Assembly: GCA_000004985.1 (NCBI GenBank)
Contig: GG738878.1
Reading direction: 5' to 3' (one strand)
Length of the DNA stretch: 64,000 nt
Origin: Naegleria gruberi
Lineage: Eukaryota
Position numbers and translations under genes: made by a program. The notes under the pieces are model-generated. The model did no database searches, was not told the DNA's origin, and saw nothing but the letters and a program-made list of their open reading frames with translations. Shown here one piece after another: positions 5,327 to 46,430 of the stretch. The stretch's first letter is position 1. Each line of letters begins with the position of its first letter.

Positions 5327-6452
5327 ATGCAATTGGCTCGGGTTGCTGATGTGAATGATCGTCAAGTATTTAAGCCTTGTACGTTGATTGATGATCAGGA
5401 GAGAGTTTTGAGGATGTATTGTGGTCGTTCTCATGTTCTCTATGAAAGTAAGTTGTTGTCTCTTTTGAAATATTGGATCTAACTATGTATTCCGAAATTT
5501 GTTCATATTTGTGCACATTCATATTTAAATAATTATTATATATTTAGCTAGGGACGGATCTTTGATAAGTTTTGGAAGAAACGACTATGGTCAATGTTCC
5601 ATTCATGAAAAGGAGGTTAATCGTCCTGTGCCAGCACTGTATAAAACCCGAACAGGTGCTGTTCAGCAAGTCAAATATCCAAAGTTTTTCTCAACTGGGT
5701 GGTTTCATTCATTGTTGGTAAAGGATGAAAGATTGTATGCTTGTGGATACTTTTCATATTCCCCAATGAGTGGTCATGTTATATTTAATGATGTGACAGA
5801 TATTGTGATTAAGGTACCATTTAAAGAGATTACATTTGTGGGTTCTGGAGATCATGTTTGTACAATAGTTGTTGATAATTGTAGAATTATTCAAATGAAT
5901 ACGAATTTAGAGGTATATAATGTAGATAATTTGAGAGAAATATGTGCATACAAGAGTGGATTTTGCTATATTTCTACAGGTGGAGTAATATATCAACCTG
6001 AGGGTAACAATATTGTACAAGCAAAGGAATATTCGAGTTTTGGATGCTATGACTTGAGGACGACAGCAGTTGGCGGTTTTTCCTTCAAATCAAGAAAATT
6101 GGAAAAGTCTATCATTGGAACAGATGAATATTCACTGGATTGCAATGTCTACTCATCATTTTGCTCACATTTTGTCTATAATACGAAAGAGAGAAAATTA
6201 TATGCGTACGGTTCCAATAGTGATCATCAACTTGGAGTAGGCACAGCAAGTGCTGCTAAAGGTTCGGAGGTTTCCTCAATTAATCAAATTCTTTCAGATA
6301 ATTCCAACTGGGATATTTTAGATATTCATTCTGGATGTGATTTCACAATTATTTCAATAGGAGTTCCATACTCGAAGAATGTCATTAGATTTAAAAATAA
6401 CTTATTGAAGAACGCTAATGCATCATTGCTGACTGATGTCAAGTTTCTCTAA
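5327..6452 (+). CDS. RCC1-like repeat (beta-propeller) protein; exons 5327..5447 and 5548..6452
   Basis: Exon 1 is MQLARVADVNDRQVFKPCTLIDDQERVLRMYCGRSHVLYE and ends GAA A|GTAAGT. The 100-nt intron ends TATTTAG at 5547. Exon 2 continues in phase (..TRDGSLISFGRNDYGQCS..). RCC1 signatures GRNDYGQCS and YGSNSDHQLGVGT are present. Confidence 0.6.
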
Positions 6453-6689
6453 GTATCTATATGGTTAGTGTGAAAAAGAACTTGGTTTGTAAACTATTCT
6501 TTAGCAGTGAAAACCAAATCCAGATGCAAATGGTCTGTCATTTAGTACAAAATCCTCAATTCCCCAATATATATTTTCAGATTCAAAGTGAATATTTCCA
6601 ACTTCTTCAACCTTTCTTATTTCCCATATATTAGCAGAATTAATTATTAAGGAAAATTTTAAAAAACATTCTTTTAAAATTAAACAAAA

Positions 6690-9600
6690 ATGTTGCACGC
6701 TTTCCACAAGCCTCTGCAAGTAAACAGAAATGGAACACAAATATTCCTATTGTTGTGTACAAAAAAGAAGCCGATAGCAACAAGAACGTTCGCGAATACT
6801 TTTATATTGTCCTCGTCGGTTCCTTCTAAAGAGTTGTTGTGGAACAAGAACATTTCCATTGATGATAAAATTAAATTCTACAGAACATTTAAAACAAATA
6901 ATCATGATTTATTGGAAATGATTGACATTTGCTTGCTGGTGGCAAATTGTTGTTCCATGATGAAGAGTGAGAAGGAATTTAAAGAGTGTTTATTGGATTT
7001 AAAAAGTTATTGTTCACAATTAAGCGATCAAACAGAAAAAAAAGTGAATGAAAAATCATGGAATTTTATAATTCAACATTTTTGTAAAGAACAAACATTT
7101 CATTCCTATGCCATTTATCTATTTAAAAGAGTTATGCAAGAGAAACAATTAGCATGTCCCAATTTATTTACATTAACTGCCATACTTAAAGTTTGCTCTG
7201 TAGGTAATACCCAAGTTGAATTTTGTGAACAAATTGTTAATGAATTAGAGCAACATGGCGCAATGAATGTATTTTTATACACTCACTTTATTAATAATTG
7301 TATTTGGAATGATGATTTGGAAAGAGCATTAGCAATTGTGTTGAATATGAAAGGCAAAGATATTGAACCAAACTATGCAATTTATATCCCACTTTTAAAA
7401 GCAGCCACTGTTAAGAAAAACATTCAAGTTGGAATGACACTTTACCAACTTGTAAAAAAGAGTAATTTAGCAAGTCCTCAATTATCAACGACAATTATAT
7501 CATTTGCATTGAAATTAAGAAAACCAGAGTTGGTAATAGAAGAAATTGAATTAGTGAAACAACAAAAATGGATGACAATCATAACATGGAATAGTTTAAT
7601 TCAAGCATATATTCAAGAGAACAATATTAAGAAAGCGATTGATGTTATTCATGAAATGAAAGATAATGGTATTTGTCCAGATTCGGCAACTTTTAACATT
7701 CTCATAACAGCTTGTGCTAATACCAAGTTATTTGCAGAAGGAAAGTTGATTCACAAAATTACAACTAACACTTTGAAAGATAATTGCTCTGTTGAACTAT
7801 TGACATCCATTATTAATTTTTATACAAAATGTGGACATCCAGAGATTGCAATCAACGAATGTGAAAAGATGAAATCAAAGGGATTAATGAATGTTGTTTC
7901 TTTTACATGTCTAGTTGAAGCATACATTCAAATAAATGAAATACAAAAAGCCATCGACACAGTTACTGAAATGAAACAATTCAAGGTTACTCCAAACGCT
8001 ACCACATTCTCCATTTTGCTTACCGCATGCGCTAAGTTGAAATTATATAAGGAGGGAATATTGATTCACAAAATTGCAAATAATACTTTGAGAGATAATA
8101 GCTCTCTTAAACTTTTGACATCAATTATTAATTTTTACACAAAATGTGGACATCCAGATATTGCAATTAATGAATGTAAAAAGATATCAAAAAGTATTAT
8201 GGATGGAATTGTTTAATTCAAGCATATATTCAAAATAAGGAAGTTCGACAGGCAATTGAAATAATCACAGAAATGCAAGATTATGGTGTTGAACCAAACT
8301 CTACCACTTTTAACATTTTACTCACAGCGTGTGCTGATTCAAAATTGTTTGAAGAAGGAAAGGCAATTCACAAACTTGCAACTGGCACCTTGAAAGATTA
8401 CTCTTCTGAACTTTTAGCATCTATTGTCAACTTTTACACAAAATGTGGACATCCAGAAACAGCCATTAAGGAATGTGAACAATTGAAATCGAAAGGATTA
8501 ATGAACAATATTGTTTGGAATTGTTTAATTCAAGCATATATTCAAAATAAGGAAGTTCGACAGGCAATTGAAGTAATCACAGAAATGCAAGATTATGGTA
8601 TTGAACCAAACTCTACCACTTTTAACATTTTACTTAAAGCATGTGCTGATTCAAAATTATTTGAAGAAGGTAAATTACTGCATCAAGCATCTGGTCAAGT
8701 GCTCAATAATCCTACAATAGAGTTGAACAATAGTATAATTAATTTTTACACAAAATGCGGACATCCAATAATAGCTATTGATCAATTTGAAAAGATGAAA
8801 ACCAAAGGATTTGAGGCAAATGTTATTACTTGGACGTGTTTAATTCAAGCACACGTTCAAAATAAGGAAGTTCGACAGGCAATTGAAGTAATCACAGAAA
8901 TGCAAGATTACGGTATTGAACCAAACTCTACCACTTTTAACATTTTACTCACAGCGTGTGCTGATTCAAAATTATTTGAAGAAGGTAAATTGATTCACGA
9001 ACAAGCAATAGAAAATGTTAAAGATTGCTCTACTGAACTTTTGACATCAATTATTAATTTTTACACAAAATGTGGACATCCAGAAACTGCCATAAAGGAA
9101 TGTGAAAAATTGAAATTGAAGGGATTAATGAACAATGTTGCTGTTTGGAATTGTTTAATTCAAGCACATATTCAAAACAATGAGGTCCAAAAGGCAATTG
9201 AAATAATCACAGAAATGCAACAATTTGGATTGAACCCTGATTCTACAACCTATACTATTATACTTAAGGCATGTACTGATTCAAACTTGTTTGAAGAAGG
9301 GAAGTTTATTCATGAACAAGCAATAGAAAATGTTAAAGATTGCTCTACTGAACTTTTGACATCAATTATTAGTTTTTATACAAAATGTGGACATCCAGAG
9401 GTGTCAATTGGAGAATGTGAAAAATTACAATCGAAGGGATTAATGAACAACATTGCTGTTTGGAATTGTTTAATTCAAGCACATATTCAAAATAACGAAG
9501 TTCAAAAATCAATTAAAATAATCACAGAAATGCAAGATTATGGTATTGAACCAAACTCTACCACTTTTAACATTTTACTCACAGCGTGTGCTGATTCAAA

Positions 9601-11038
9601 ATTATTTGAAGAAGGAAAGGCAATCCACAAACTTGCAACTGGCACCTTGAAAGATTACTCTGCTGAACTTTTAGCATCTATTGTCAACTTTTACACAAAA
9701 TGTGGACATCCAGAGGTTTCAATTGAGGAATGTGAACAATTGAAATCAAAGGGATTAATGAACAATGTTGCTATTTGGAATTGTTTAATTCAAGCACATA
9801 TTCAAAATACAACAAATACCCAAAACCCATCTACAATAGAATATGGACTGAACAAAGCAATGGTGGTTTTTAATGAGATGAAGGAACATATTGAACCCGA
9901 TAAGATAACCTACCTCATATTGTTGGCTGGATGTGGAGAATATGTTGCGAGAAAGATGGGACTGGATATTATTGATGAACTCAAACTAAAAGGAATGGAT
10001 GTTCATGAGGAGATAGTCAGTGTTATGATCTACTTTTATTCAAGAATTGCTTATCAATCAACTGCACAACAACTATTTGAAAAGCTTGTCGAAGAATCAG
10101 CCCAAAAACGTCTATCCATCATAACATATAATAACATGTTGTCATGTTACGCTCAACATGGAAAAGGAACACAAGCCATGAATTTATTTAATGAAATGGT
10201 TGATAAGAACGTTGAAATGAACGAGCAAACATTCACAATCATGCTGAACACATTTTCACATTGTGGAATGATTGATGAGGCGAATCAACTTTATGGAGAA
10301 ATGAAGACAAAATACAACCATAATCCATCAGTAATTGTAGACTGTGTAATGGTTGATGTCTTTGCCCGTTCAGGAAGATTTCATGAGGCAGAAAAAATAA
10401 TTAACGAAAGAATGAATTATTCTTTGTGGAGTGCTCTACTGGCAGGATGTAGAAAGTTCAATAATGTTGAGCTTGGTGAAAAGGTTTTTAAAATATTGCT
10501 TAGTATTGATGAAAAAAAAGCTCCACCATATATATTATTATCGAACATTTATACTTATTATGGGTTGAATGAAAAAGCTGACAATATAAGACAATTAATG
10601 ATTGAAAATGGAATTAAAAAGATACCAGGAATTGTGTATCAGGAAGAAGATGGTAAATCATACCAATTTGTTTCTGGATCAAAAAAATATGAAAGATTTA
10701 AGGAAATTGAGAAAATGAGAGAGGAGATTTACAGAAAAATAATCCAAGCTGGTTTTGAGCCAGATACTAGATGGGTAACTAACTCAAAATTATTAACTGA
10801 AGAAGAAAAATTAGATTCACTTTGTAGACATGCTGAGAAGACAGCAACAGCTCATGCATTTGTTTTGAATCCAAAGAGAAAATCAATTATTTTAGCGGCA
10901 AATCTTCGTGTTTGCAATGATTGTCATACTGCCACAGAATTCATTTCAAAAGTGATGGATGTTGAAATAATTATTAGAGATGCAAATAGATATCACCATT
11001 TTAAAGATGGTAAATGTAGTTGTGACGGATATTGGTAA
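6690..11038 (+). CDS. PLS-class pentatricopeptide repeat protein with C-terminal E/E+/DYW cytidine-deaminase-like domain (organellar C-to-U RNA editing factor type). The frame is interrupted at ~8200-8272; annotated as ORFs 6690..8216 and 8273..11038.
   Basis: There are at least 8 tandem ~104-aa units, each three PPR motifs (..WNCLIQAYIQNKEVRQAIEVITEMQDYGIEPNSTTFNILL..FYTKCGHPE..). The C-terminus has a PG-box/E motif (IPGIVYQEEDGKSYQFVSGSKKY) followed by DYW: HAEK..LRVCNDCHTATEFISK..IIIRDANRYHHFKDGKCSCDGYW. This gives the HxE...CxxCH zinc/deaminase signature and the terminal D-G-Y-W. At 8190-8230 an ~10-nt deletion relative to paralogous units (aaaagtattatggatggaattgtttaattcaagc versus aaaggattaatgaacaatattgtttggaattgtttaattcaagc) shifts the frame. 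Confidence 0.85.
7580..9790 (+). repeat. Intragenic tandem repeat, period ~312-315 bp (one PPR triplet per unit), >=7 copies, many >90% identical at nucleotide level
   Basis: The motif tggaattgtttaattcaagc recurs at about 8216, 8517, 8831, 9146, 9458 and 9777. The unit at 8273-8520 is almost identical to the unit at 9530-9780, an ~1.26-kb higher-order duplication. Confidence 0.85.
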
Positions 11039-16957: not shown

Positions 16958-16984
16958 ATTAAAGGAAGTTTTGAGGGTTGTTTA

Positions 16985-19059
16985 GTGATGAATTGGACGA
17001 AGAACTGGTTCTTCAAGATCGAGAGACAATTCCCAATCGTGGAGTGGAATAAGGGCAGGACGGAGAGAAATAGTAACACAGGTAATATTTTCCTTTTGGC
17101 ATTCAGAGTAAAGGTGAGCTTCAACGTCAGGAGAGACAGCACTTGTACATTCGTCCAAAATAGCGTAAGCTGGCTTATGGTACAATAATCTAGCAACTGC
17201 CAATCTTTGTTGTTCTCCCAATGAAAGAATATCATCCCAATTCTTTTCTTGATCCCAACCTTCTCTTTCGGCAATATAGGCAATTCTGACTCTTCTTAAA
17301 AATTCCTTAAGTTCATCATTAGAGAATTTCTTAGATTTTTCGCTATTAGCACCTTCTGGGTAAATAATTTGTTCTCTGAGAGTACCAAAAATGTTATATG
17401 GTTTTTGAGGAATATAGTAAATATCAGAGCATAAAGTATTATTGGCACCACCAGGTTTTTGAATCTTACCAGAATCAGCATACCACAATCCAGCTAAAAC
17501 TCTGAAAATTGATGATTTACCAGTACCATTAGGACCAGTAATGAGGAGATTGTTTCTCTTTTCTGGGGTAGTCTTTAAAACCTCAAATGACAATGATTTA
17601 ACGAGAGTGTGATTGTCTGGTGTTGATAAATGTACATCTTCAAATTTGATAATATCTCCTGAAACAATATGTTTGGCCTTCTTTTCAGCATCCATCTTTT
17701 CAATAGAATCAATGGTTTCCAAGAGGTGACAAATGTTAGCAGCATAACCTGATGTTTCAGATAAACGAGTATGCAAGTGAATAATTTCACCAACAGCTGT
17801 AAATTCGTGTGAAACGACAGCAGCCAAATATCTCAAAACTCTGGCCAATTCAGTTTGGTCAGAATGCTTCAACATACCAAAGAAAACTGGATACATGGCA
17901 ATGAGCCAACTGACAGCTTGAGGTAAGTTGAATACAAAGAAGTCATTGAAGAAACCGAACAACCACTTGGATCTGATGAGCAATCTCTTGTGATTGAACA
18001 AATTCCAGAAAGCTTCATCAGAAACATTTCTTTCCAAAGCATCACCAGCATAGAAAGCAATGGATTCACCATTGGTAGCAGTTCTATAATGAGTATGTCT
18101 GAATTTACTTTCAAGATCTTGCAATCTTGAAGTAAGAGTACCAAATGGAGGTCTCAAAATAGCCATAGCAATGAATGAGAAGGTCATGTATCCCAAGATA
18201 ACAAGAGGACCTCCAACACCAACAATATTAACGAATTGATAAGTATAAACAATAACGTCAGCAATTGGTTTGACCAAGTTGGCATACAAGCTACAAATAC
18301 CATCACAGAACCTGTCAACATCTTGTGTAATGGTTTGATCACTATTGAGATTCAATATTATTGAAATAATTGTAGGAAAAACTTACGGATCATTGAGGCC
18401 AGTATTCAAATTGGCAGTCTTGTAGTACATCATATTACGCAAATACTTGCCATGAATATATTTTGTCAAGGAAATTCTCCATTCCAATTGAAGTTTGTTG
18501 ATGAGGAATTTCAAACTTGGAGCCAAGAGTGACGAAGCAAATGAGAGTAATGTGGAATATCCAAGAATTGACATGAAACTTTTGAAATCAAAGTTCATTA
18601 AAGCACCTGATAATTCACCTGATAAACTACTCAACCAGTTACTAACAAATGTTCTCATAATGACAACGATTGTGACACCAATCAATTGTAAAAATTCTTT
18701 AGATCTTTTTTGGAAATTTAGAAATCACATTAAACTCAAATTACTTACTTGACAGAAGGAACAACGATAGAAATCAAAAGCTTCAATCTTTCTAAAAATT
18801 GCATATCAATATTTGCCTTGATTTTCTTTCCTCCTTCTTGATTGTCGATTTGTTTGGAAATACCCTTCTTGAATTTCCAATATTTAACCAAACCAACAAG
18901 ACCAGCAACAGAAATAGCACCAGAGATTGATGCATACTTTAAGTTTCTCTTATTAAAAAAGTCTGTTTTACCAGTTACTGCTTGGAATAATTCGGCCAAG
19001 CCAAACATTGTATCTTTTAAAGCATCTCCGACACTTGGTTTACTTTGTACATTGACCAT
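16985..19059 (-). CDS. ABC transporter, subfamily D (peroxisomal ALDP/PXA-type half transporter); 3 exons 18749..19059, 18387..18704, 16985..18341
   Basis: Exon 1 is ..FLERLKLLISIVVPSV, with donor GTAAGT at 18748..18743. Exon 2 is KSKEFLQLIGVTIVVIMRTFVS..NTGLNDP, with donor GTAAGT at 18386..18381. Exon 3 begins at the acceptor AATAG at 18342 and reads ..DQTITQDVDRFCDGICSLYANLVKP..EIAFYAGD..., then the NBD with Walker A (GPNGTGKSS), the signature LSLGEQQRLAVARL and Walker B (AILDECTSAVS). Phases were checked: 2 and 2. Confidence 0.85.
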
Positions 19060-22554: not shown

Positions 22555-25500
22555 ATGGCAGCAATTCATCACACGCTTCCACTTTACAAATTGGTGACGA
22601 CGGGAAGGATAACAAGGATGAGTGGTTTTTTCATGATGATTTTAATGGTGGCCATTGCTGTTGTTGTTTTCATGAGAGTCGATGTGGTGCAGAGTAAAAG
22701 ATATGACCTGTCCCAACAATATGATCAGCAACAACTCACTGATGATTCCGAATTGTTTGTTAAAGTGTCGTCTGTGGATTATGAAAGATGGATGATGCAT
22801 CAACCTAATATCGAAAAGGTTTATAGACTTTCAAAGAGAATAAGGAGAGCCAAGGCAGAAATTGATTACAAAACAGAATACCTCTATGTTTTGGGTGAAG
22901 ATCACAATGGTGGTGCTTCTTTTTATATGGATGCGAGTGAGGAAATTATTCCAAAACATGCCAATATTTCAGTAGTATTTGATTATTTGGACGAAGCATT
23001 GGAATATGTCCATGAAAATAAGGATGATCCCTATTTACACAGATTTGTGGTTATTATGCAACAGGGTATTCACAAAGTGAAGGGTAATGAAGCAAGAATT
23101 TCTAGACCTTTCACTTCTATTGTTTCGGAGGACCCAAGATTTCCAGATAGAACCATTATCAGAGCCAATGATATCAATGGTCAGGTGCTTTTCATCGATT
23201 CAACTCATAACATTACAATTAAAGGTGTCACTCTGACTGGTGGGCACTTGGTAAATTTGAAGTTTTCTCACAAGAATGTTCCAAAACCTTGTGGTAGTGG
23301 TAGGTAGTTGACAAATTAATCCATACTGATAACAATTCTCTCAATTTATAGGTTTATTAATTTCTGCTTCAAGCAATATTTTGGTAGAATCTGTATTGTT
23401 ACAAGCAAATAAGGCTGCTATTGGTGGAAGTGTTTGCATTTACAACTCAACTGTTGTCAACTTCCACAAATGTTTCATTAAGAATAGTGTTTCATTCATT
23501 AGAAATATGCTTCTTACAGATAGCTTGAATGGTTTACAATTTTCTGAAGCTTCCAATTTCAATGTTAATAACAGTATTTTTGCTCAAAATTTACCAGCTT
23601 CTAATGATCCAGAAGGTATTTATGGTTGTGGTGGTGGTTTGGGAATATTCAACTCAAATCAAACCATATTTTCTTCATGTGTTTTTGCCAACAATACTGG
23701 TAGGTAATCTATCTTAATAATTTTACTTATTCTAAATTATCAATAGCAATTAACGGAGGAGCCATATTTACAGTTAATTCTTCATTCACTGTAACCAGTA
23801 GCAGAATTAGTGGAAATACAGCTTATAATCAAAGTAGTGGAATTTATAGTGATTGGAATAGTGAGGTTTCCATTGACAAGGTTTTCTTCTTGGAAAATAG
23901 ATGTGTTAGATTGACCTGTAAGATTATCTACTCACCAAAGAAGGAATATTTGGACGATATTTCAAGCTTTAGAGAAGTTGTTTTCCCTGCTATTTGTATT
24001 ACTGGAATTATTCTTTCCATTGGTTTGGGCTTTATTGGTTTATTCGAATTTATTAGAATGGTCAAGCAGAAAAAAAGATGGAGCAATGTAGTTTGGGGAG
24101 ACAAGATTTATTTGTGGCTTTTAGGTGCTTTGGGTATCTATAGGCCTTATGGATCTGTTCCAAGACCTTACAATTGGTTCCACAGAACCCTTATAGTACT
24201 CATTCTCGTTTTGAGTTGCATTCTTCAAGGAATGCAATCAGCTGCAGTTATGCCAGAAGTAAGTTTTCTTTTATTTCAAAATCTTAAACTGTGAAAAGTT
24301 TTTTGATCAAATGGATACTGTAAGATTCACAATCAGCGCTATTCAACAAGTAGTTTTCAATTTCATTCCTCTTGTATGTTATATTGCATTGATATTGGCT
24401 GTTAAGGCAAGCTACAAGAGATTGTTTGTCAACTACAAACCACCAATTCCAACAGAAGTTGAAGTTCAAGAAGAAAATGCTAGTCTCATTAACTTTTATC
24501 AAACTCAAATTGAAAAGGAAAATGAAAGTGTGAACACAGCATCTCCAGTATCTGATCTTTCTGAACAATCTTTTAGAAAAAAGAAGCGTAAGCATGCCTT
24601 TGATTGGAAGAAGGATACTCAAAAGACTGGTCTTCAAAGAAGTATCCATAATAGAAGAGCATTGGCAGGTGTTATTATTTCTGTATTGATTTTGGCATCC
24701 TCTTATGTTATTATTATTTTTGATACCATGTACTTTATTGATTCTAATATTGATATTGCAGCCACTACTAACCAACCTATTGGATTGGATACTATATCAA
24801 GTGCTATTTTCTACATGATGCATTGGCTTTTAAACATGTCAATTATGACCATGGTTTTGCTCACTGTATTCTTACTTTGTAACAGAATTAATTCTTATCA
24901 GAATACTTTCTTTGAAACATTATACCATCAGTTAGAGAGAGCTGTTTTCAATTTGCAAACTGGTGTCTACAGTTATGTTCACCTCAGAAAGGAATGGTAA
25001 GTATAGTATTTCATTTAATTTTCCAACCTATCTGATAGCAAACGTTTGGTGAGATATTCTTGGATTTTAACAATTTCCTATATTATTATTTTCAGTGGAA
25101 TGTGTGTCAATCAAGTTTTAATGGTTTTGTGGGGAGGCTCAGAATTCAAATTCTTTATCTATTATGTAGCAGTTCTTGTTGTAATGCTTGTTCTCATTAC
25201 ACACGTCAGTTATACAAGTAATCACTGGACCAGTTTCAGATTTGATGACTTTTTAGCAGCAGTTCCTCACTCAATTACCTATGATTATGGTATTTTCTTT
25301 GTAAGTTTATTGTCATACACTTTTATTTAATATATAATTTTCATAATTATCAAAAGGTTCCTGGAGCTAATAAGAAACTTTCACTTCCAAAAACTGAAAT
25401 TAATGACAATCTCAGACTCAATGATGGTGCATTCCCAGCTGGAGAAAGCAAGGATAAAGCTGAGCAATTGTTGAGAGATTTAACCTTCTTCCATATGTAC

Positions 25501-25656
25501 ATTCGAGATAGAACCTTTGCTTATCGTTTCCCACTCGAAATTCAAATGCAAACCTATGTCGTATTGACTGCCATTGGTTTATTGGGTTCCTCCTACGCCT
25601 TACTCAAATATGTTTCAAACTCATTCGAAACATCATACTATTATCAATATTTGTAG
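22555..25656 (+). CDS. multi-pass membrane protein with N-terminal signal anchor, right-handed parallel beta-helix (pectate-lyase-like) ectodomain and ~10 TM helices; 6 exons 22555..23299, 23352..23699, 23747..24258, 24299..24996, 25039..25300, 25357..25656
   Basis: All five introns have GTAGGT/GTAAGT donors and AG acceptors, and the phase was checked at each junction. Beta-helix repeats include NITIKGVTLTGGHLV, GGSVCIYNSTVVNFHKCFIKNS, IYGCGGGLGIFNSNQTIFSSCVFANNTG, INGGAIFTVNSSFTVTSSRISGNTAYNQSSGIY. Hydrophobic segments follow, for example VVFPAICITGIILSIGLGFIGLF, LIVLILVLSCILQGMQSAAV, FIPLVCYIALILAV, LAGVIISVLILASSYVIIIF, SWILTISYIIIFSGMCVNQVLMVLWG, FFIYYVAVLVVMLVLITHV, VVLTAIGLLGSSYALL. Confidence 0.7.
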
Positions 25657-26221: not shown

Positions 26222-27136
26222 ATGATGCTAAGTAATCCAAGTCCTCACATCAACATGTTGATTCCTCACCACCAACACCACCACCACCATCAGCATCAAT
26301 ATCACCACCAAACTGTTGGTCAACAACAACAGTTTAACACTAGTAATTTATCACCAAATTTAATGCAAGATAAAACACCAGAGAAAATGGTCTGTGGTAT
26401 TATACTCAATAACTGGAAATCTCGACACAATACGAAACTGTTGATGAGAAAAGCTCTCAATGATACTGATTCTATTGCTGCTGGTTCGATATTTAAATCA
26501 GCTGATATTGGTGGTGGCACAACATGTCTTGGTATTCAAAAGAAGAAAAAAACTCTTGATAACAAGGGTAAATTCAAATTTCACCAATATCAAGCTCCTC
26601 ACGGTAATGGTTTCGATTCGTTTTATTCGAATACTTTATCATGTTCAGCTCAATCTGATGTGAAAAAGGTGAATAATAAGGCACTTTCTTTGACTCACAT
26701 TGAAAGCAACAAACAATCTGTAAATAGCCACAATAGTCCATACATTGAAAAACAAGTAGTGTTCAAATTTGCAACACTTCCACATCAAACTGCCAGCCAT
26801 CATGTGAAATCAGTAAGCTCAACTGTCATTGCCTCAACCAACATGTACACCTCATGTGGTACAAGCTCTACAAGTAGCAGCACAACGAGTAGTAGCAACA
26901 CTAGTTCACAATTAAATTCAAGATCCAATCAATTAATTATGGATGATGATTATAACAATCATTATCAAAGAGTAGCTACTCTTCAAACTGCACCAATCAA
27001 TTCCAATAATAATAACAATCAGTGGTGGAATTCTTTCGAACTTCCACAAATTAACAGTTGTCATCAAGCTACAACAACTACCTCTTCAGAACCATTACCA
27101 AGTTTTTCACAATTAATAAACACTCTTGGTATTTAA
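26222..27136 (+). CDS. low-complexity His/Gln/Ser/Thr-rich hypothetical protein
   Basis: 304-aa ORF starting MMLSNPSPHINMLIPHHQHHHHHQHQYHHQ, with poly-S/T/N tracts. Nothing recognisable. Confidence 0.45.
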   Translation: MMLSNPSPHINMLIPHHQHHHHHQHQYHHQTVGQQQQFNTSNLSPNLMQDKTPEKMVCGIILNNWKSRHNTKLLMRKALNDTDSIAAGSIFKSADIGGGTTCLGIQKKKKTLDNKGKFKFHQYQAPHGNGFDSFYSNTLSCSAQSDVKKVNNKALSLTHIESNKQSVNSHNSPYIEKQVVFKFATLPHQTASHHVKSVSSTVIASTNMYTSCGTSSTSSSTTSSSNTSSQLNSRSNQLIMDDDYNNHYQRVATLQTAPINSNNNNNQWWNSFELPQINSCHQATTTTSSEPLPSFSQLINTLGI

Positions 27137-27420: not shown

Positions 27421-30400
27421 TTGACTCGATGTGTGGTCTTTTTTAAAAACAAAATGAAAAACTGTTATTTTGGTGATATTGTGATTGTGTGTGTTGATGA
27501 AGATGGTGATGGTGATGATCATTATTCGGAGGCTGGATATGAATTATTACAAAACCACTTAGATAGTGTAGCATGGGAAAGAGTGGAGAGGAATGAAAAG
27601 ATTTATGATCATATGGAGAGTCTAATGAAACCCTATATTTGGTCAGGTTTGGAATATATTGAGAAAAATCCATTTCCAGACAATGATTGTAAATTGGTGT
27701 TTTATAGAGTGTTGAAGAAATTTGGAGAGTTATTGGAAATGGCTTCAGATGCTATCAAGTGTGATGAACGGTTGGTTCTTAAGGCTGTTAAAAGTAAACC
27801 TTCCTCTTTGCAATTTGCAAGTTTGGAATTGAGATCAAACAGAGAGTTTGCATTGAAAGTTGTTTCGTTTAAGACTCTTCATAGTGGTTCTCCATTTGAA
27901 TTTTTGGAGAATTTTCATGGTGATTATGAAATAGCATTGTTAGCTGCCAAACAATATGGAATGGCATTGGAGTTTGTTGCACCAAAGTTGAGAAATAACA
28001 GAGATATCATACGTGAAGCAGTGGAAAATAATGGATGTGCACTACAATTTGTCCCTGAACAATTAAAAGATAGAAGCTTAGTATGGAGTGCTTTAGATTC
28101 ATATTGCAAGTTTGAATTTGTACCAAAAGAAATGGAGAATGATAGAGAAATTTTACTTAAAGCTGCCTTACATTCAAATTTGAGCAGAATTCCAGACTTA
28201 TTTCACAGTGACAGAGAATTCGTTCTTGAACTTGTAAAGAGAGATGGATGTTTATTACAACATCTTCCAATAGAGTACCAACAGGATAGATTATTTGTAT
28301 TGGAAGCTGTAAAACGGAACCCTTTTTATTTAGCTGAGGCAAGTGATGAATTTAGAGGTGACAGGGAAATTGCTTTGATTGCTTTTCGGAAAAATCCGGA
28401 TGTATTTCAATATATTTCAAATAACTTGAAAAATGATAGAGATTTCATATCAAGCTTGATATTGAATGGATATGACCTGTATAGATTACAACGGTTTGGT
28501 GTTGCACTAGCCAACGATCGAGATTTCATTTTGAGTGCGATGGATAATTGGCTTGACTTTTCAAATTTTATGGATATGGAAAATACTTACAGGTCAGACC
28601 TGGAATTATGTAAAAAACTTATCAAACTATATCCTGATTGCATACGTTATACACTATGTGAAGAACTGAAACATAACAAAGAATTAGTAATGAGCTTATT
28701 ACCTCATAGTTTGGAAATACTTGAAGACATACCAGACGAGCTGAAGAATGACAGAGAATTTATTCAATACGCATTACGGTTGCATGACAAGTCATTACAG
28801 TATGCGTCGGACGAGCTGAAGAATGATAGAAGTTTGGTAATGGAAGCCATAAAATACGATAGCAATAACTTTATCTTTGCTTCTGACGAATTGAAAAATG
28901 ACAGACAAATTGTAGACTATATTATTCTTCAAAATGCATCTTTAATTGAATTTGCCTCCAAGTCCATTAGAAATGAAAGAGAAATTGTATTGAAAGCTAT
29001 CAAAAATTCATTTACTGATATTTCTCAATTTTTAGGTTATGAAATTATGGAAGAAAGAGAAATAGTCTTGGAGTGTGCTAAAAGGTTTGGAGGTTTGGAG
29101 CATCTTATAACCGAGTTTAGAAATGATAGAGAAATTGTTCGACATGTTATTCAAAATAATAAGGGTGAACAGCTTACTTATGCATCTGAACATTTACGCA
29201 AGGATCGAGAAATGGAGCTAATTGCAGTAAGGAATGGGCTGAGTTTGAAGTATGTCCATAACAAAATAGACAGGGAAATTGTATATGCTGCCGTAAATCA
29301 CTATGAAAGAAACGTTAAATATATACCAGATGAATTCATGAATGATGAGGAAATTATCTTACTATCTGCTAATTATCGTAATTGTTTAGATTACACTGGA
29401 GAACAATTGAAATCAAATAAGGAATTTATTAGAAAATTGATTTCAAAAAATGGTTGTTTATTATCAGATGTAGCAAGTGAGCTGAAGGATGATAAAGAAG
29501 TTGTGATGGATGCTGTGACTTCAAATGGCTTATCACTACAGTTTGCTTCACAATCAATGAAAGAGGATAAGGAAATTGTTTTGTCAGCTGTAAAATCCGA
29601 TGGACAAGCTCTGTCCCACGCCCCTGATCATTTTAAAAATGATAGAGAAATGATAATTTCTGCAGTTGATCATGGGTTTGCGGAATTTGATCATGATTAC
29701 ACTGCAGATAGAGAAATAGCACTAAAGGTAGTGAATAGGGATATTTTTTATTTCGAATACACAAAGGAACTGAGAATGGATAGAGATTTCATATTACAAA
29801 TAGAAAATCCAAATTTCTCCCTTTTATCAATTTCCCCTAAATTAAGAAATGATAGAGAAATAGCTTTTAAGGCGTTGGACATGGATGGGAATGCTTTATT
29901 GTACGTCTCTGACGAGTTGAAGAATGAATTTAAAAACGATCGAGAAGTATTGTTAAGAGCAATTGGAACTAATCAAATAGCATTTGTTTGTGCCTCAGTT
30001 GAGTTGCAAAATGATGAAAAGTTTGTATTAGATTCGGTCTCAGTGAATGGAATGGTATTGAGATATTTACCACTCAAATTCAAGGATAATAGACAAGTTA
30101 TTTTGAAAGCTGTTCAAAATAATGGTTGGGCACTCTTTTACGCACCATCAGAATTACTTCAGGATAGAGAAATAGTAATGAATGCCATAAAGAATACTGG
30201 TACTTCATTGGAATATGCTCCTTTCGAATTTAGAAACGATAAGGAAATTGTTTTAGAGGCAATTAAAACCAATGTGGAATCTTTACAATCGGCTTCATAT
30301 GAATTACGGAATGATGAGGAATTTATTTCACAAGCTATGGATATTGATATTGAATCTCTTCAATATGCCAATTATTCACTGAGATATAATATTGATTTTC

Positions 30401-30600
30401 TTACAAGAATGAATAAGGAAAATAGGATTATTCAAGGAGCATCAGAACAGTTACAAAAAGTTATTGACATGAATGGATTACTACAACAATTCAAGCAGGA
30501 GACAACTAGCAAAATCTACAACTTCAATCCCATTACTTTATGGACAATTTCAATTTTATTAGTGGCTTTATGTTGTGGAATCAAATTATATAATATTTGA
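27421..30600 (+). CDS. DUF4116-repeat protein (>20 tandem ~24-aa half-repeats) with C-terminal transmembrane tail anchor
   Basis: 1059-aa single ORF. The repeated motif is LKNDREIVLKAV..NG.ALQFAS.EL (for example DELKNDRSLVMEAIKYDSNNFIFASDELKNDRQIVDYII...). The last 22 aa (ITLWTISILLVALCCGIKLYNI) are hydrophobic. The likely true start is MKNCYF at 27454. Confidence 0.8.
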   Translation: MTRCVVFFKNKMKNCYFGDIVIVCVDEDGDGDDHYSEAGYELLQNHLDSVAWERVERNEKIYDHMESLMKPYIWSGLEYIEKNPFPDNDCKLVFYRVLKKFGELLEMASDAIKCDERLVLKAVKSKPSSLQFASLELRSNREFALKVVSFKTLHSGSPFEFLENFHGDYEIALLAAKQYGMALEFVAPKLRNNRDIIREAVENNGCALQFVPEQLKDRSLVWSALDSYCKFEFVPKEMENDREILLKAALHSNLSRIPDLFHSDREFVLELVKRDGCLLQHLPIEYQQDRLFVLEAVKRNPFYLAEASDEFRGDREIALIAFRKNPDVFQYISNNLKNDRDFISSLILNGYDLYRLQRFGVALANDRDFILSAMDNWLDFSNFMDMENTYRSDLELCKKLIKLYPDCIRYTLCEELKHNKELVMSLLPHSLEILEDIPDELKNDREFIQYALRLHDKSLQYASDELKNDRSLVMEAIKYDSNNFIFASDELKNDRQIVDYIILQNASLIEFASKSIRNEREIVLKAIKNSFTDISQFLGYEIMEEREIVLECAKRFGGLEHLITEFRNDREIVRHVIQNNKGEQLTYASEHLRKDREMELIAVRNGLSLKYVHNKIDREIVYAAVNHYERNVKYIPDEFMNDEEIILLSANYRNCLDYTGEQLKSNKEFIRKLISKNGCLLSDVASELKDDKEVVMDAVTSNGLSLQFASQSMKEDKEIVLSAVKSDGQALSHAPDHFKNDREMIISAVDHGFAEFDHDYTADREIALKVVNRDIFYFEYTKELRMDRDFILQIENPNFSLLSISPKLRNDREIAFKALDMDGNALLYVSDELKNEFKNDREVLLRAIGTNQIAFVCASVELQNDEKFVLDSVSVNGMVLRYLPLKFKDNRQVILKAVQNNGWALFYAPSELLQDREIVMNAIKNTGTSLEYAPFEFRNDKEIVLEAIKTNVESLQSASYELRNDEEFISQAMDIDIESLQYANYSLRYNIDFLTRMNKENRIIQGASEQLQKVIDMNGLLQQFKQETTSKIYNFNPITLWTISILLVALCCGIKLYNI

Positions 30601-32886: not shown

Positions 32887-34851
32887 TTATTCCAATGTAT
32901 CATTATTAGAAACCAATTGTCTTTGTACCAATTCCTTATATCTACTACCATTAATCATGAGTTGATCGTGTGTACCCTCCTCCACAACCATACCTCCATC
33001 AATTACATAGATGTTATTGGCATTCTTAATTGTAGAGAGACGATGAGCAATTACCAAAACAGTTCTTCCTTCCATTAATCTTTGAAGAGCTTCCTGAACT
33101 TGATGTTCAGCATTGGAATCAAGGGCAGAGGTGGCTTCGTCCAAAATAAGAATCCTTGCTTGTTTCAATATGGCTCTAGCAATGGCAATTCTCTGCTTTT
33201 GTCCACCACTCAATTTAATACCTCTTTCACCGACAGGTGTATCATAACCTTCCGAGAATCCCATAATAAACTCGTGAGCATTGGCCTTAGTTGCAGCATC
33301 AATAATTTCTTCATTGGTTGGAGGAGTGCTTGATTCCCAACCATAACAAATATTCTCTCTAATACTGCAAGAGAACAGAGATGGTTCCTGTTGCACAACA
33401 GCAATATTCTTTCTCAATTCTTTTGGACTGAGTTCTCTAATTGACTTTCCATCAACTAAAATATCACCCTCATTAGGATCATAGAAACGTTGTAATAATG
33501 AGCTAATGGTTGATTTACCATTTCCACTCTTTCCAACCAGAGCATTTACTGTGGAAGGTAACATTTCAATATTAACACCCTTCAAAACAGTTTGTTCAGG
33601 TCGAGATGGATAGGCAAATTGCACATTTCTAAACTCTACATGACCAGAAACTGGTTGATTAGATTCATCCATATCATAATCCATAGTTTGTGCTGATTTT
33701 CCTTGTCTCTTTTCAATTACTGGCACTTGTTTCAATAATTCGTGAACTCTTGCAGTAGCACCAACAGCCTTAACTAATTCGAATAGAACAGAAGAAACAA
33801 CTCCTAAACTAGTGGCCACATAGAATGTATAAATAATAAAGCTGGTCAATAATCCAATTGTAATTTCCTTTTTCAAAACCAATGAACCTCCATACCACAA
33901 AACCAGAATAATACTAGCTGTTGCACAGAAGGTCATTGTACCATTGAAAAATCCACTGCTCACTGAAAGTTTTCTTGCCAATTTCAAAGTGTCATCAATT
34001 GAAACATTGTACTGAGAAACGTGAGTATATTCCTTTGAAAAACTTCTTACAGTTCTCAAATTTGAAAATGATTCCTCAGCAACTTCACTAGATTTAGCCA
34101 ACGCATCTTGAACTTGTTTTGATAATCTCTTTACAATTTTACCATAAATAATTGCACCGAATATAATTGGTGGAATTACTGACATGGTTACCAAAGTTAA
34201 TTTCCAACTTGTGTAAAATAAAAAGAAAACTCCACCAATTGCCTGTAAAACATTTCTCATAAAAAGAAATAGATTTGATGTTACAGCAGCTTCAAGAGAC
34301 TTCGTATCAGAACTCAATCTATTAAGTAATTCACCTGTTTTAGTGGAATCGAAAAAGCTCACATCCTGAATAATCATTGTCTCAAATAATTCCTTTCTCA
34401 ATCCAGCCACAACTCTCTCACCTGCAAATGAAAAGCAAAAGTGTTTAATTGCTGTTGTAATGGCAATTCCAAAAACTGCCAATAACAAGTAAAGAGCTGC
34501 AGTGTTCAAATATTTTTCTCCCTTCTCATCGCCATCTTCAGATGTCAATGCTTGTGGAATGACATCAACAAGGTTTGTCAAGAATAATGGTAAAACAAGT
34601 CCTAAAACTGTACTGATCAACATGGCAACCGTTCCTACCAATAGCAAATGCCATTGAGTGAATCCTAAACCGAGTAACCATTTTAATTGTGAAAGTGAAG
34701 ATCCTCGGAAGAAATTACTAATAAATTTAAGTGGTGATCTTGATGTTGGAATTGTTGGTGATGAAGAGTTATCTTTTTCATGGAGGTTGATATTTTCATT
34801 TGTTCCTTCATTGTTATTATCATCGTCTTCGGAGAGGTGTTGTGGAGGCAT
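32887..34851 (-). CDS. ABC transporter, subfamily B half transporter (TMD-NBD; mitochondrial ABCB10/ATM1/TAP-like)
   Basis: 654-aa single ORF. A six-helix TMD follows an ~70-aa N-terminal extension. The NBD carries Walker A (GKSGNGKST), the signature LSGGQKQRIAIARAIL, Walker B (ILILDEATSALD) and the H-loop (VIAHRLST). Confidence 0.85.
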   Translation of the reverse strand: MPPQHLSEDDDNNNEGTNENINLHEKDNSSSPTIPTSRSPLKFISNFFRGSSLSQLKWLLGLGFTQWHLLLVGTVAMLISTVLGLVLPLFLTNLVDVIPQALTSEDGDEKGEKYLNTAALYLLLAVFGIAITTAIKHFCFSFAGERVVAGLRKELFETMIIQDVSFFDSTKTGELLNRLSSDTKSLEAAVTSNLFLFMRNVLQAIGGVFFLFYTSWKLTLVTMSVIPPIIFGAIIYGKIVKRLSKQVQDALAKSSEVAEESFSNLRTVRSFSKEYTHVSQYNVSIDDTLKLARKLSVSSGFFNGTMTFCATASIILVLWYGGSLVLKKEITIGLLTSFIIYTFYVATSLGVVSSVLFELVKAVGATARVHELLKQVPVIEKRQGKSAQTMDYDMDESNQPVSGHVEFRNVQFAYPSRPEQTVLKGVNIEMLPSTVNALVGKSGNGKSTISSLLQRFYDPNEGDILVDGKSIRELSPKELRKNIAVVQQEPSLFSCSIRENICYGWESSTPPTNEEIIDAATKANAHEFIMGFSEGYDTPVGERGIKLSGGQKQRIAIARAILKQARILILDEATSALDSNAEHQVQEALQRLMEGRTVLVIAHRLSTIKNANNIYVIDGGMVVEEGTHDQLMINGSRYKELVQRQLVSNNDTLE

Positions 34852-37613: not shown

Positions 37614-40283
37614 ATGCTTCTCTCTACTTCCAACCCTACACCATCATCACAAGTGACGGTGAAAAAGAGTGGTGAAAATATGTTGTTCAACAATTCAACC
37701 TTCACCAACAACAGCAGCAATACCCCAAACTCTTCAGAAGAGCAAAAAAGTAGTACTAGCCATGTGATTTCATCCTCTTTATCACCTCTTGCACTCCAAC
37801 CAATAACTACAACACCCAACCATCAATCAAAGCCTATGTCTATGGAGGTTTTGTCATCTTCTTATCCACAACAACATGAATCAAAGCCTTCTTCCGATAG
37901 TATCATACCACCACCAAGAATGCAACCTCCAACAACAACAAACTTTCCCATCATTACAAGCTCTAACCCATCTATTCGTTCCACAACAACAGGTCATCCA
38001 ACTTTTCACAGTTCTTTCCCTATTATGACCAATAACTTTTTGGCTCCTCCTCTCTTCTCTTCTTCAAAAATTCATTCTACTAGTTCCGTTCCAACTATTA
38101 CCACCTTACAAAGCTCTTCTGTGAGTCCAAATTCACTAATTTCCTCTATCAATAATACACCAACAAAATCTAGTTTGGATAATGTACCAAAGCCTGTACC
38201 AACTGCTTCCTCAATTCTTGCACCATCACTTTCTCTCATTGAAACAGAGTCTATTTCACCTCAACCTATTAGAGTTTCAACAATTTTGTCCAGTTTTAAT
38301 ACCCCATCCGATTCAAGTAAATCAGCAATAGGTAATAGTAACAATAGTTCAAACTCTCAAACAGAGTCTGTTTCCACAACTACTACTCCAAAGATTACAC
38401 GTGTAAGGAAACTCACACCAAGAAGAGTTCCTGACCTTCCTCTGCAGCAGGAGCAACAAGCTGGTACAACAAAACAAGCAAGTGAGCCAACAACACCAAC
38501 CAAGGAACAACCTACAAGAACAGAAGCTGAATCAAACCCTTTCACTACACTTTATTCTAAACCTCTTTCCTCCTTTCCACTTCATCATCCTTCTTCCTCA
38601 ATGAGTGGCAGCAGTTTTTCACCATTTCCTCCTCCAACATCACATTCCAGATTAGTGAGTCCTTCAACGCCATCACCAATAAGCCTTTGGCCAAGCACTA
38701 CTGTTACAACTAGCACTTCGGCAACACCTAATAAGCATATAGTCCCTCCTCCACTATTACCACCTCTTAATGTTTCTCCTCCCAACACAAAGAAGAGAAG
38801 AACCAATAGCCAAGAAAGCGTAGGAGCCAGTCTTCAGCCATTAACACCATTAACACCACCAACACCATCAGCTCAATTTCCATTCCCTTCAGTTAGATTG
38901 TCAAGTGCTACACCACCACCAGGATATGTTCCTCCTCCTCCTTTCCCTATTTCATCAGCTTCACTTATTCCAGTAGTAAAATCAAATGTGATTGGACCTC
39001 CTGAAAGAAAGGTTTCTAGCAATACTCCACCGCCAGAGGCAAAACCAAAGAAAAAGGAAAATATGGTTGGTTGTAACAGTATCAGAATACCATTCAGATC
39101 TTGGATGAAGACTCTTGATACTCTATCAGCACCAAGCCTTAGAGCTGTACAGGAACGAGTCACCCAATTGTTGGAAAAGAAGGAAGAAGAAAAGAAGAAG
39201 AATCTACTAGCAAAGCAACAGAAACAAGAAACATCCTCTTCTTCAAATCGAACAACCAAATTGAGTTGTAGTAACGATACTTTGTCATTACTCTCTACAG
39301 ACTTATCTAGTATTGATACGCTTGCTATTCTTGCATTGGCTGATTCACCTCCTTCTCCTACTTTGGCTAAATCTAGTGAACTGATATCTGAATCTGTTGA
39401 ACTATTCTCTAAAAGTCCAGATAAATCAATGATGATTGAATCTGATGATTCTGAGGAGGAATCTGAGGAAGAAATTGATATTAATCTCAAGATTGCTCAA
39501 GCTGAACCTTTTGTTAGAGAATATTCTGGTAATGGATTTATCTATCCTGGTAGAAGGGGAGCCAAGTCACAACGAGTGAGACTACCAATTTGTTTCTACC
39601 CAAGCATGAAAAGTGTTTTAGCCTCAGAAAGCAGCGCTGAAACATTTGTTGAAGGTGAAGATTCTATCAATCCTGTCATTGATTTGGAGCATCATTTGGA
39701 ATTTTTCATTGACGATTCTGACAGAAAGTTGTATAACTCTATTAGGGGATTGCATCTCGTGCTGCTCAAGAGGATCAGTAAGACTGTCTATATTGAGGAG
39801 AGTAGTGTACTCGTTCAAAGAAGTTCTAGATCAGATGATGGTGGATATAACTTTTCCATTATCAATCAAACAAGTCTCCACCCTCCTTTACCAGGACAAA
39901 GACAAGCCGACTATTCTCTTCTCCTTGTTGAACCAAGAGGTAAACGTAGGAATGCTCAAGATGTCGATAAGGTCAATAGATATTGTGAAATTATTCATGA
40001 ACAAGGCAATCAATGCAAGATTCGTGTTGGATTTAGAATTTGTAAAGCTCAAAAGAAAAAGCATACTAAAGGTGTTTACTTGTTGAGACTAGTAGCTTGT
40101 ATATCCGATGAAGCAGAGATTAAATTTGATTCCTCAAATCAACCAATTAATGGTGTTATGAAAGTATTGGAAGAAAGTGAACTATTCAAGATTGTATCTC
40201 GAAGAGTTACTGCTAACAGTAAGCCAACAGCAAGTCTCAAACGGAAGATGGATGATGATGAAGTAGATTCATCTTCTGAATAA
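37614..40283 (+). CDS. large S/T/P-rich hypothetical protein with ~250-aa structured C-terminal domain of unknown family
   Basis: 889-aa single ORF. The first ~480 aa are mucin-like S/T/P low complexity. The C-terminus (..FIYPGRRGAKSQRVRLPICFYPS..LEHHLEFFIDDSDRKLYNSIRGLHLVLLKRISKTVYIEESSVLV..CKIRVGFRICKAQKKKHTKGVYLLRLVACISDEAEIKF..) looks globular and was not recognised. Confidence 0.5.
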   Translation: MLLSTSNPTPSSQVTVKKSGENMLFNNSTFTNNSSNTPNSSEEQKSSTSHVISSSLSPLALQPITTTPNHQSKPMSMEVLSSSYPQQHESKPSSDSIIPPPRMQPPTTTNFPIITSSNPSIRSTTTGHPTFHSSFPIMTNNFLAPPLFSSSKIHSTSSVPTITTLQSSSVSPNSLISSINNTPTKSSLDNVPKPVPTASSILAPSLSLIETESISPQPIRVSTILSSFNTPSDSSKSAIGNSNNSSNSQTESVSTTTTPKITRVRKLTPRRVPDLPLQQEQQAGTTKQASEPTTPTKEQPTRTEAESNPFTTLYSKPLSSFPLHHPSSSMSGSSFSPFPPPTSHSRLVSPSTPSPISLWPSTTVTTSTSATPNKHIVPPPLLPPLNVSPPNTKKRRTNSQESVGASLQPLTPLTPPTPSAQFPFPSVRLSSATPPPGYVPPPPFPISSASLIPVVKSNVIGPPERKVSSNTPPPEAKPKKKENMVGCNSIRIPFRSWMKTLDTLSAPSLRAVQERVTQLLEKKEEEKKKNLLAKQQKQETSSSSNRTTKLSCSNDTLSLLSTDLSSIDTLAILALADSPPSPTLAKSSELISESVELFSKSPDKSMMIESDDSEEESEEEIDINLKIAQAEPFVREYSGNGFIYPGRRGAKSQRVRLPICFYPSMKSVLASESSAETFVEGEDSINPVIDLEHHLEFFIDDSDRKLYNSIRGLHLVLLKRISKTVYIEESSVLVQRSSRSDDGGYNFSIINQTSLHPPLPGQRQADYSLLLVEPRGKRRNAQDVDKVNRYCEIIHEQGNQCKIRVGFRICKAQKKKHTKGVYLLRLVACISDEAEIKFDSSNQPINGVMKVLEESELFKIVSRRVTANSKPTASLKRKMDDDEVDSSSE

Positions 40284-45700: not shown

Positions 45701-46430
45701 CCTCCATTACAACCTTTATTACCAGATTTACCACTACCTCCACTACCACCGCTTCCACCACTTCCACCATTGCCACCACTTCCTCCACTACCACCATGAC
45801 CACCACTAAATTTTGAATGAATTATTATCATGCATGAATAGATTACCAGTACTTACTCGCCACCATCTCCTCCATTTGCCAAAAAGACCAAAACCTTTCC
45901 AGCTCCATCATCCAAACACAATGTTTCATTAGCAGTACCACTCACAACAATGGACTTGTGGTTAACTCCTTCAATTGTCACTTTAATATTACCAGCGCTC
46001 TGTGCACTAGTTCCACTTGTACCACTTCATGAAATAATGATCAATAAAAAGGGTGTCCCAATTACTGCTACTACTTACTGCTCACCATGTGTTGCTCTTC
46101 CTCCGCTGGAATATATTAGTATTTCAAACAAATCATTGCTACTTACTGACTACCATTGGTACCATTACCACCTCTCTGACCACTAGAACCCCAAGAACCA
46201 GAATTTCCACTCTATTTCATCATGATGATAAAAAAACAATGATATCCTATGGATGATACTTACACTTCCCCAACTTCCTGAATGCCCACTATTAATAATA
46301 AGAAAAATAATGATCATCATCAAATAGTATAAACATTTTCATGTTATCCAATAAAAACCCACCTAAAACCCGAAACACCCGAAATTCCAGGTTTCCCAGA
46401 AACGTCTACTATAATTGAATTTTTGAGCAT
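42785..46430 (-). CDS. collagen-like (Gly-X-Y) repeat protein with large C-terminal globular domain; 13 exons: 46363..46430, 46264..46288, 46147..46211, 46079..46105, 45857..46024, 45689..45805, 45638..45646, 45586..45594, 45526..45534, 45462..45479, 45400..45417, 45078..45360, 42785..45029
   Basis: Every junction has a GTAAGT donor (the first is GTGGGT) and an (A/T)AG acceptor. Only one reading phase stays open through all exons (phase 2 at the micro-exons). The reconstructed N-terminus is MLKNSIIVDVS-GKP-GIS-GVS-GFS-GHS-GSW-GSS-GNS-GSW-GSS-GQR-GGN-GTN-GSH-GGR... followed by ..NIKVTIEGVNHKSIVVSGTANETLCLDDGAGKVLVFLANGGDGG. Then come DGGHGGSGGSGGNGGSGGSGGSGGSGKSGNKGCNGGDGGE, the micro-exons DGG / DGG / NGG / NGGDGA / DGGNGA, then NGGNGGSGGSVVIETHNPALLKFVQAECRAGRRGYGGDPGCGGSGG..GSDGRSGQSGQNGQSGRQ|GMGGQDGQDGMPG, then a 735-aa non-repetitive domain. 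Confidence 0.65.

Follow-up and report, generated by a model that had tools for sequence, protein, structure and literature searches.

A heterolobosean protein joining a Pmp-type beta-helix to an eight-helix membrane domain, with a predicted role in adhesion or sensing

The window analyzed here is a stretch of 64,000 nucleotides from Naegleria gruberi (contig GG738878.1 of the GenBank assembly GCA_000004985.1). A gene at positions 22555-25656 on its plus strand encodes a protein of 954 amino acid residues in which an N-terminal beta-helix ectodomain is followed by a membrane domain of eight predicted helices. The reading that I favor, tentatively, is that the protein is an adhesin-like receptor for adhesion or sensing that would signal through its cytoplasmic loops, and is not an enzyme; the topology, the surface location, and the function are all predicted from the sequence. 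The gene structure, the family to which the protein belongs, and the nature of its two halves are described below, and the possible roles are then weighed against each other.

One gene, conserved in three lineages

Six open reading frame (ORF) pieces join in frame into 954 codons and a stop codon, and the five introns between them (52, 47, 40, 42, and 56 nt) all have GT..AG ends. The closest protein relative is the N. lovaniensis hypothetical protein P0001 (980 residues), which is 65% identical to the window protein with 98% query coverage. The alignment of the two proteins is free of gaps over all the inferred junctions (PCGSG/LLIS, NNT/AINGG, MPE/FFD, LRKE-C-KRL, and GIFF/VPGANKK). It was also found that gene calls on environmental Naegleria sequences stop or read through at the boundaries of exon 4: P0017 and P0018 end with ...MPE+VS, and P0016 consists of MDRVRF...LRKEW. 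In addition, a PUA/RsmB-F methyltransferase gene lies upstream both here and in N. lovaniensis, where one extra gene stands in between. Since the orthologue alignment, the environmental gene calls, and the shared upstream gene agree, the gene model is sound. Thus, the six-exon model of 22555-25656, which an earlier sequence-only reading of this DNA had put at about 955 residues, is correct, and the locus constitutes a single gene with introns, from an amoeba of the Naegleria type (Heterolobosea). With a GC content of about 33%, the window is AT-rich; it is eukaryotic DNA, and its introns are very short.

The exons, all on the plus strand, divide the protein as follows. Exon 1 (22555..23299), an ATG-initiated ORF that runs to a GT donor, encodes residues 1-248 and the first base of codon 249, namely a predicted cytoplasmic N-terminal tail, the hydrophobic signal segment, and the beginning of the ectodomain; its in-frame join was checked and is backed by the orthologue alignment. 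Exon 2 (23352..23699; residues 249-365) encodes beta-helix rungs. The translation of exon 3 (23747..24258; residues 365-535) carries the last two rungs, a linker, and the transmembrane (TM) helices TM1 and TM2 in one open frame, and it is here that the two domains are physically joined. Exon 4 (24299..24996; residues 536-768), whose boundaries are the same in P0016, encodes TM3, the basic, predicted cytoplasmic loop 3, TM4, TM5, and most of loop 5. The end of loop 5, TM6, TM7, and loop 7a are encoded by exon 5 (25039..25300; residues 768-855), while exon 6 (25357..25656; residues 856-954 and the stop codon) encodes the variable loop 7b, the conserved loop 7c, TM8, and a 13-residue C-terminal tail ending in ...YYYQYL. 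As a separate observation, the N. lovaniensis gene (L001, positions 6001-9513) has only part of its intron positions in common with the window gene, and the PCGSG and LRKEC sites belong to the common ones; it lacks the 40-nt MPE/FF intron and has another intron near residue 578. The differing sites point to intron gain or loss within Naegleria.

How widely is this protein distributed? An exhaustive phmmer scan of the membrane half against 1.84 billion cluster representatives gave eight matches at E<=0.001, and all of them are fragments or full-length members of the same family. Their sources are N. lovaniensis, N. fowleri, Willaertia magna, two environmental amoeba-like contigs, and one marine-protist transcript. 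The layout of a beta-helix followed by eight TM helices is kept in all of these relatives, which fall into three lineages. Lineage A (Naegleria and Willaertia) contains the window protein, P0001, N. fowleri P0012 (88.5% identical to P0001), W. magna P0003 (54% identical to the window protein), and several environmental fragments. Lineage B comprises the environmental contigs L003 (JGI 3300062347) and L004 and L005 (Logan SRR22388309 and SRR25266749), in which prokaryote-style gene callers have split the genes at introns. After reassembly, the L003 gene has GT..AG introns of 50 and 52 nt and encodes an 831-residue protein that is 32-34% identical to lineage A. Judging from its short introns (50-52 nt) and its GC content of 34%, the L003 contig looks heterolobosean-like; the gene calls beside the homologue on this contig (7378-10153, minus strand) carry RGS and NIT domains. 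Lineage C is the marine-protist transcript (MMETSP; also JGI 3300016793), whose protein is 20-22% identical. Its contig, L002, is a 3.5-kb transcript with a single uninterrupted ORF of 940 residues that includes both domains. Scans of metagenome contigs for a divergent branch found nothing. The fused architecture occurs in three lineages at 20-33% identity, and the two domains are therefore taken to work together.

Could a secreted beta-helix gene and a separate membrane gene have been wrongly joined? Prokaryote-style callers do break the homologous loci at introns into separate ORFs, which would suit such an artefact. However, the last rungs lie with TM1 and TM2 in the single open exon 23747-24258, the L002 transcript carries both domains in one ORF, and the same fused order is seen in the annotated N. 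lovaniensis, N. fowleri, and W. magna proteins as well as in two environmental contigs. The artefact is thus effectively refuted, its probability being close to nil, and the assignment of both halves to one gene in the sequence-only reading holds.

No paralogue was found within the 64-kb window, and the annotated genomes of N. lovaniensis, N. fowleri, and W. magna yielded one full-length protein each. By these counts, the gene appears to be single-copy and not a member of an expanded receptor family; the lineage-specific receptor expansion that had been envisaged is not borne out.

A Pmp-type ectodomain on a membrane domain of its own kind

In the beta-helix of Pmps, the tetrapeptides FxxN and GGA(I,L,V) are buried, rung-forming elements (PMC10715098), and Pmps and trichomonad Pmp-like proteins have been linked to adhesion (PMC10715098, PMC9203502). 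In the window protein, about seven Pmp-type rungs of 26-38 residues each were located at residues 209-427 (23179..23934, plus strand; about 220 residues, spanning introns 1 and 2) on the basis of motif enrichment, the Pfam matches of the relatives, and Foldseek. The ectodomain contains eight FxxN motifs, a number reached by only one of 5000 shuffles, and two GG[AS][ILV] motifs (7 of 5000 shuffles). All of these motifs lie within residues 273-415, where non-canonical GGG and GSG variants were also found. About 90 residues of a further beta-strand region precede the clear rungs, and the whole ectodomain comes to about 400 residues, so the earlier estimate of about 350 residues of parallel beta-helix was roughly right. 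Of the 11 N-x-S/T sequons in the whole protein, eight lie in the ectodomain, in keeping with the many sequons noted before.

The full window protein has no Pfam match at E<=1, not even to Chlam_PMP (PF02415). Its relatives do better. Chlam_PMP scores 31.9 bits in the L003 homologue and 20.6 bits in P0011 (gathering cut-off, 20.6), and Beta_helix (PF13229) scores 33.5 bits in P0011, the most distant member (cut-off, 25.9). At E<=10, Chlam_PMP matches five of six family members and Beta_helix matches two of six. For structure modelling, the N. lovaniensis orthologue stood in for the spliced window protein. Its AlphaFold model is all-beta over residues of about 115-420, and the predicted local distance difference test score (pLDDT) rises to about 80 in the rungs. 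When the ectodomain model was compared with the PDB by Foldseek, nearly all of the top 40 matches were right-handed beta-helices, the best being the pectate lyase 7xks (E=1.7e-5); the pectin-lyase-like fold had been anticipated correctly. The ectodomain is thus, on a model of modest confidence, a right-handed beta-helix built of Pmp-type (GGA/FxxN) rungs.

The likeness to Pmps and trichomonad Pmp-like proteins lies in the FxxN and GGA(I/L/V)-like tetrapeptides spaced about 20-25 residues apart and in the extracytoplasmic right-handed beta-helix that they would form. Pmps are bacterial autotransporters with 9-25 rungs, a middle region, and a C-terminal beta-barrel (PF03797). In contrast, the window protein has about seven rungs that stay below the Pfam threshold, an alpha-helical anchor of eight TM helices, and no PF03797 match. 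It is not a Pmp autotransporter; the common feature is the repeat type only.

Ahead of the ectodomain, a hydrophobic segment was found at residues 22-40 (22618..22674, plus strand; MSGFFMMILMVAIAVVVFM; Kyte-Doolittle value, 2.63), and the homologues have an equivalent segment. The sequence-only reading took this segment for a signal anchor. The segment itself is there, but the L003 homologue starts with a canonical signal peptide (MTMQQLLLLLLLLLVLVINC/KD), and residues 22-40 may likewise be a cleaved signal peptide instead of an anchor.

The membrane domain covers residues 446-941 (23989..25614, plus strand). Eight TM helices are indicated alike by hydropathy, the family alignment, and the models; they lie at residues 446-464, 514-532, 552-570, 657-675, 705-729, 780-798, 806-824, and 923-941, and the same eight helices align in all lineages. 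Besides these, there are a weak hydrophobic stretch at residues of about 479-497 and several amphipathic loop helices, which probably inflated the previous count of at least ten helices. Of the lysine and arginine residues near the membrane, the window protein has 23 inside and 3 outside, the ratio being 20:4 in L003 and 14:7 in P0011. By the positive-inside rule, a single topology is predicted for every lineage, with the ectodomain and the C-terminal tail outside and loops 1, 3, 5, and 7 inside. The tail is short (13 residues), as had been noticed, but with eight helices and this charge distribution it is predicted to be extracytoplasmic, not cytoplasmic.

Which family does the membrane domain belong to? 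Neither Pfam nor NCBIfam gave anything significant for the membrane half, whether the query was the full protein, the membrane half, or a profile of two or three lineages. Profile searches of all PDB sequences with the membrane domain returned no matches at E<=10. The membrane domain showed no profile match, solved homologue, or characteristic internal repeat that would link it to a known superfamily of transporters or channels, such as MFS, ABC, RND, TMEM16/OSCA, or polycystin. There was no 7tm Pfam match at E<=10. Fold searches of the membrane part found only generic helix bundles, with structures of G-protein-coupled receptors (GPCRs) at Foldseek E>=2. A 4+4 internal duplication was not detected (hhalign probability, 0.1%), nor was any inverted or direct repeat. 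As far as these tools can see, the membrane domain lies outside all families described in Pfam, NCBIfam, and the PDB sequences, and the statement that it is not a recognizable GPCR, transporter, or channel stands. Weak matches to DUF2207_C (E=0.057-2.5), SfLAP (E=0.0025, one member), COX14, Orbi_NS3, and an XrtX-associated family (E=0.32) were dropped, as they were non-significant and inconsistent between members.

The strongest conservation is found in three predicted cytoplasmic loops, all encoded on the plus strand. Loop 5 (residues 730-779; 24881..25072; NRINSYQNTFFETLYHQLERAVFNLQTGVYSYVHLRKECKRLVRYSW), which is modelled as a helix, is 94-96% identical to the other Naegleria proteins and 88% identical to that of Willaertia. 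Loop 7a (residues 825-860; 25208..25371; SYTSNHWTSFRFDDFLAAVPHSITYDYGIFFVPGAN) shows no difference from N. lovaniensis and N. fowleri (100% identity) and is 92% identical to Willaertia. Loop 7c (residues 891-922; 25462..25557; EQLLRDLTFFHMYIRDRTFAYRFPLEIQMQTY), just ahead of TM8, is the best-conserved motif of the family, with 97-100% identity in Naegleria and Willaertia and 56% in lineage B (L003). In terms of identity per segment, these loops, at 94-100% between Naegleria species, stand above the TM helices (47-74%) and the beta-helix (55-74%, with 74% in the Pmp rungs between Naegleria species). Such loop-centered constraint suits partner binding or gating at the cytoplasmic face.

A candidate receptor and its alternatives

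In the tentatively favored receptor, the beta-helix would face the outside of the cell or the lumen of an organelle, loops 1, 3, 5, and 7 would be cytoplasmic, and the short C-terminal tail would be outside. As in the Pmps of chlamydiae and the Pmp-like proteins of trichomonads, the beta-helix would bind or adhere without catalysis, and its ligands may be prey, substrate, or matrix. The eight-helix core might then relay occupancy or force to cytoplasmic partners via the near-invariant loops 5, 7a, and 7c. The surface sensor proposed in the sequence-only reading thus survives as the best guess.

Several known systems offer partial likenesses, but the window protein lacks the defining features of each of them. 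Adhesion-type receptors, such as adhesion GPCRs, also have a signal peptide, a large binding ectodomain (here predicted to be glycosylated), a multi-pass core, and conserved cytoplasmic surfaces. Unlike them, the window protein has eight helices and not seven, its C-terminus is predicted to be outside, and no 7TM, GAIN, or GPCR profile matches it at E<=10. SV2A, SV2B, and SV2C (synaptic vesicle proteins) are likewise polytopic membrane proteins whose beta-solenoid is exposed to the lumen or the cell exterior, more loosely alike; the SV2 match 8uo9_A was non-significant (E=1.1). The SV2 solenoid, a quadrilateral helix of pentapeptide repeats, sits within a loop of an MFS transporter that has 12 TM helices. 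In contrast, the beta-helix of the window protein is N-terminal and of the Pmp type, and its core is not MFS, given that Pfam finds no match. An extracellular right-handed beta-helix on a eukaryotic membrane protein also occurs in animals, where the PbH1/G8 proteins fibrocystin (PKHD1) and CEMIP/TMEM2 have one. These proteins contain G8 domains and are anchored by only one TM helix, and both CEMIP and TMEM2 are enzymes that degrade hyaluronan. No sequence relationship to these PbH1/G8 proteins was detected.

Some observations weigh against a receptor. The single copy and the 88% identity between the pathogenic N. fowleri and the harmless N. lovaniensis look more like a housekeeping gene than a fast-evolving surface receptor. 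A channel gate or a regulatory domain would also be consistent with loops so highly conserved. Two AlphaFold runs gave a membrane fold of low confidence (pLDDT of 51 and 55; predicted template modelling score of 0.40-0.41), because the family alignment is so shallow, and a channel or transporter fold would be compatible with such models. The location in the plasma membrane is an assumption, and no paper on the family turned up when the literature was searched by organism, domain, and locus tag.

The main competing explanation is that the eight-helix domain is a channel or transporter, and that the beta-helix is an accessory luminal or extracellular domain serving as a ligand gate, a matrix tether, or a protective cap, in a layout like that of SV2 proteins or polycystins. 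I consider it rather unlikely. It would account for a polytopic core with very strongly conserved membrane-proximal loops and for a single-copy, slowly evolving gene that resembles one with a housekeeping membrane function. The conservation of a motif, P-x-[FY]-x-D-x-x-D, in the extracellular loop between TM2 and TM3 also speaks for it. On the other hand, the searches of Pfam, NCBIfam, and PDB recovered no transporter or channel family even at E<=10, the domain shows no inverted or direct internal repeat, and few conserved charged or polar residues were seen inside the helices when the alignments were read by eye. A membrane-anchored glycan-processing enzyme (a polysaccharide lyase, hydrolase, or epimerase), perhaps acting on polysaccharides of the cyst wall or of prey, with the membrane domain as an anchor or export partner, is improbable. 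Such an enzyme is suggested by the best fold matches of the ectodomain, namely pectate lyases, PL6 alginate lyases, GH82, GH28, and tailspike depolymerases, and by a precomputed weak Pel9A-like_beta_helix match of the L003 homologue. But the identity in these fold matches is 8-12%, which indicates a shared fold only, the repeats are of the Pmp adhesin type, and the window protein has no Pfam match specific to a polysaccharide lyase or glycoside hydrolase family. Lyases use a cluster of Ca-binding Asp/Glu and catalytic Arg/Lys residues, and GH28 enzymes use an Asp triad. The beta-helix columns that are invariant over the three lineages are the rung-forming G, N, F, and S, together with L, I, P, A, Q, Y, and a single Asp (D400), and they include no acidic/basic cluster of the catalytic type. 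Moreover, there would be no need for an enzyme to be anchored by eight helices whose cytoplasmic loops are invariant. The glycan-processing enzyme that had been offered as one option thus loses ground to the adhesion or sensing receptor.

In a bolder version of the receptor, which is somewhat less likely than the plain one, the eight-helix domain may be a new membrane fold or module that arose in Heterolobosea and a few unidentified protists and links a Pmp beta-helix adhesin of bacterial type to the inside of the cell. The protein would then represent a new class of eukaryotic adhesion, mechanosensory, or chemosensory receptor (or ligand-gated channel), and N. fowleri would have it as a single conserved surface-exposed protein. 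If the receptor reading is right, there would be an undescribed membrane-domain family that has no relative in Pfam or PDB and is always fused to a Pmp-type beta-helix, and eukaryotes would have a new way to anchor and use a bacterial-style adhesin module. The protein would be a candidate for surface or prey recognition by Naegleria amoebae. The single conserved copy in N. fowleri, with its large ectodomain predicted to be exposed, would be a conceivable surface marker or target, but the 88% identity to the protein of the harmless N. lovaniensis argues against a virulence-specific role. Its importance is moderate, as orphan, lineage-restricted hypothetical proteins are of a kind common in protist genomes.

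Other genes in the window

Just downstream of the beta-helix gene, a putative ORF of 304 residues (26222-27136, plus strand) has a poly-His/Gln N-terminus, low-complexity runs rich in Ser, Thr, and Asn, and no Pfam match. It is followed by an ORF of 1059 residues (27421-30600, plus strand) that consists almost wholly of 17 DUF4116 repeats (Pfam E=2e-204). Two ABC transporter genes (16982-18355 and 32887-34851, both on the minus strand), one of the ABCD type (ABC_membrane_2) and the other an ABCB-type half transporter, are ordinary neighbors.

A single-exon gene at 8273-11038 (plus strand) encodes a 921-residue PPR protein that has an E motif and ends in a DYW deaminase domain, which is the architecture of a plant-type organellar RNA-editing factor. 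DYW-type PPR proteins occur in Naegleria, in agreement with the taxonomic origin of the window. The PPR array corresponds to a 315-bp tandem repeat with 5.1 copies (8204-9809).

An 889-residue ORF that has no Pfam match (37614-40283, plus strand) lies where the GC content of the window is highest and the skew is strongest (GC of 0.41 and GC skew of -0.45 at 38-39 kb), and a 205-residue ORF lies antisense to it. Further along, in the region of 42785-45418 (minus strand) and 45730-45808, a strong C-rich strand skew at 45-46 kb (GC skew of -0.56) overlaps 9-bp tandem repeats of the ACCACCACT type. The minus strand of these repeats encodes Gly-rich (GGS)n runs beside a 746-residue DUF7932 protein, and the (GGS)n stretch is probably an upstream exon of the DUF7932 gene.

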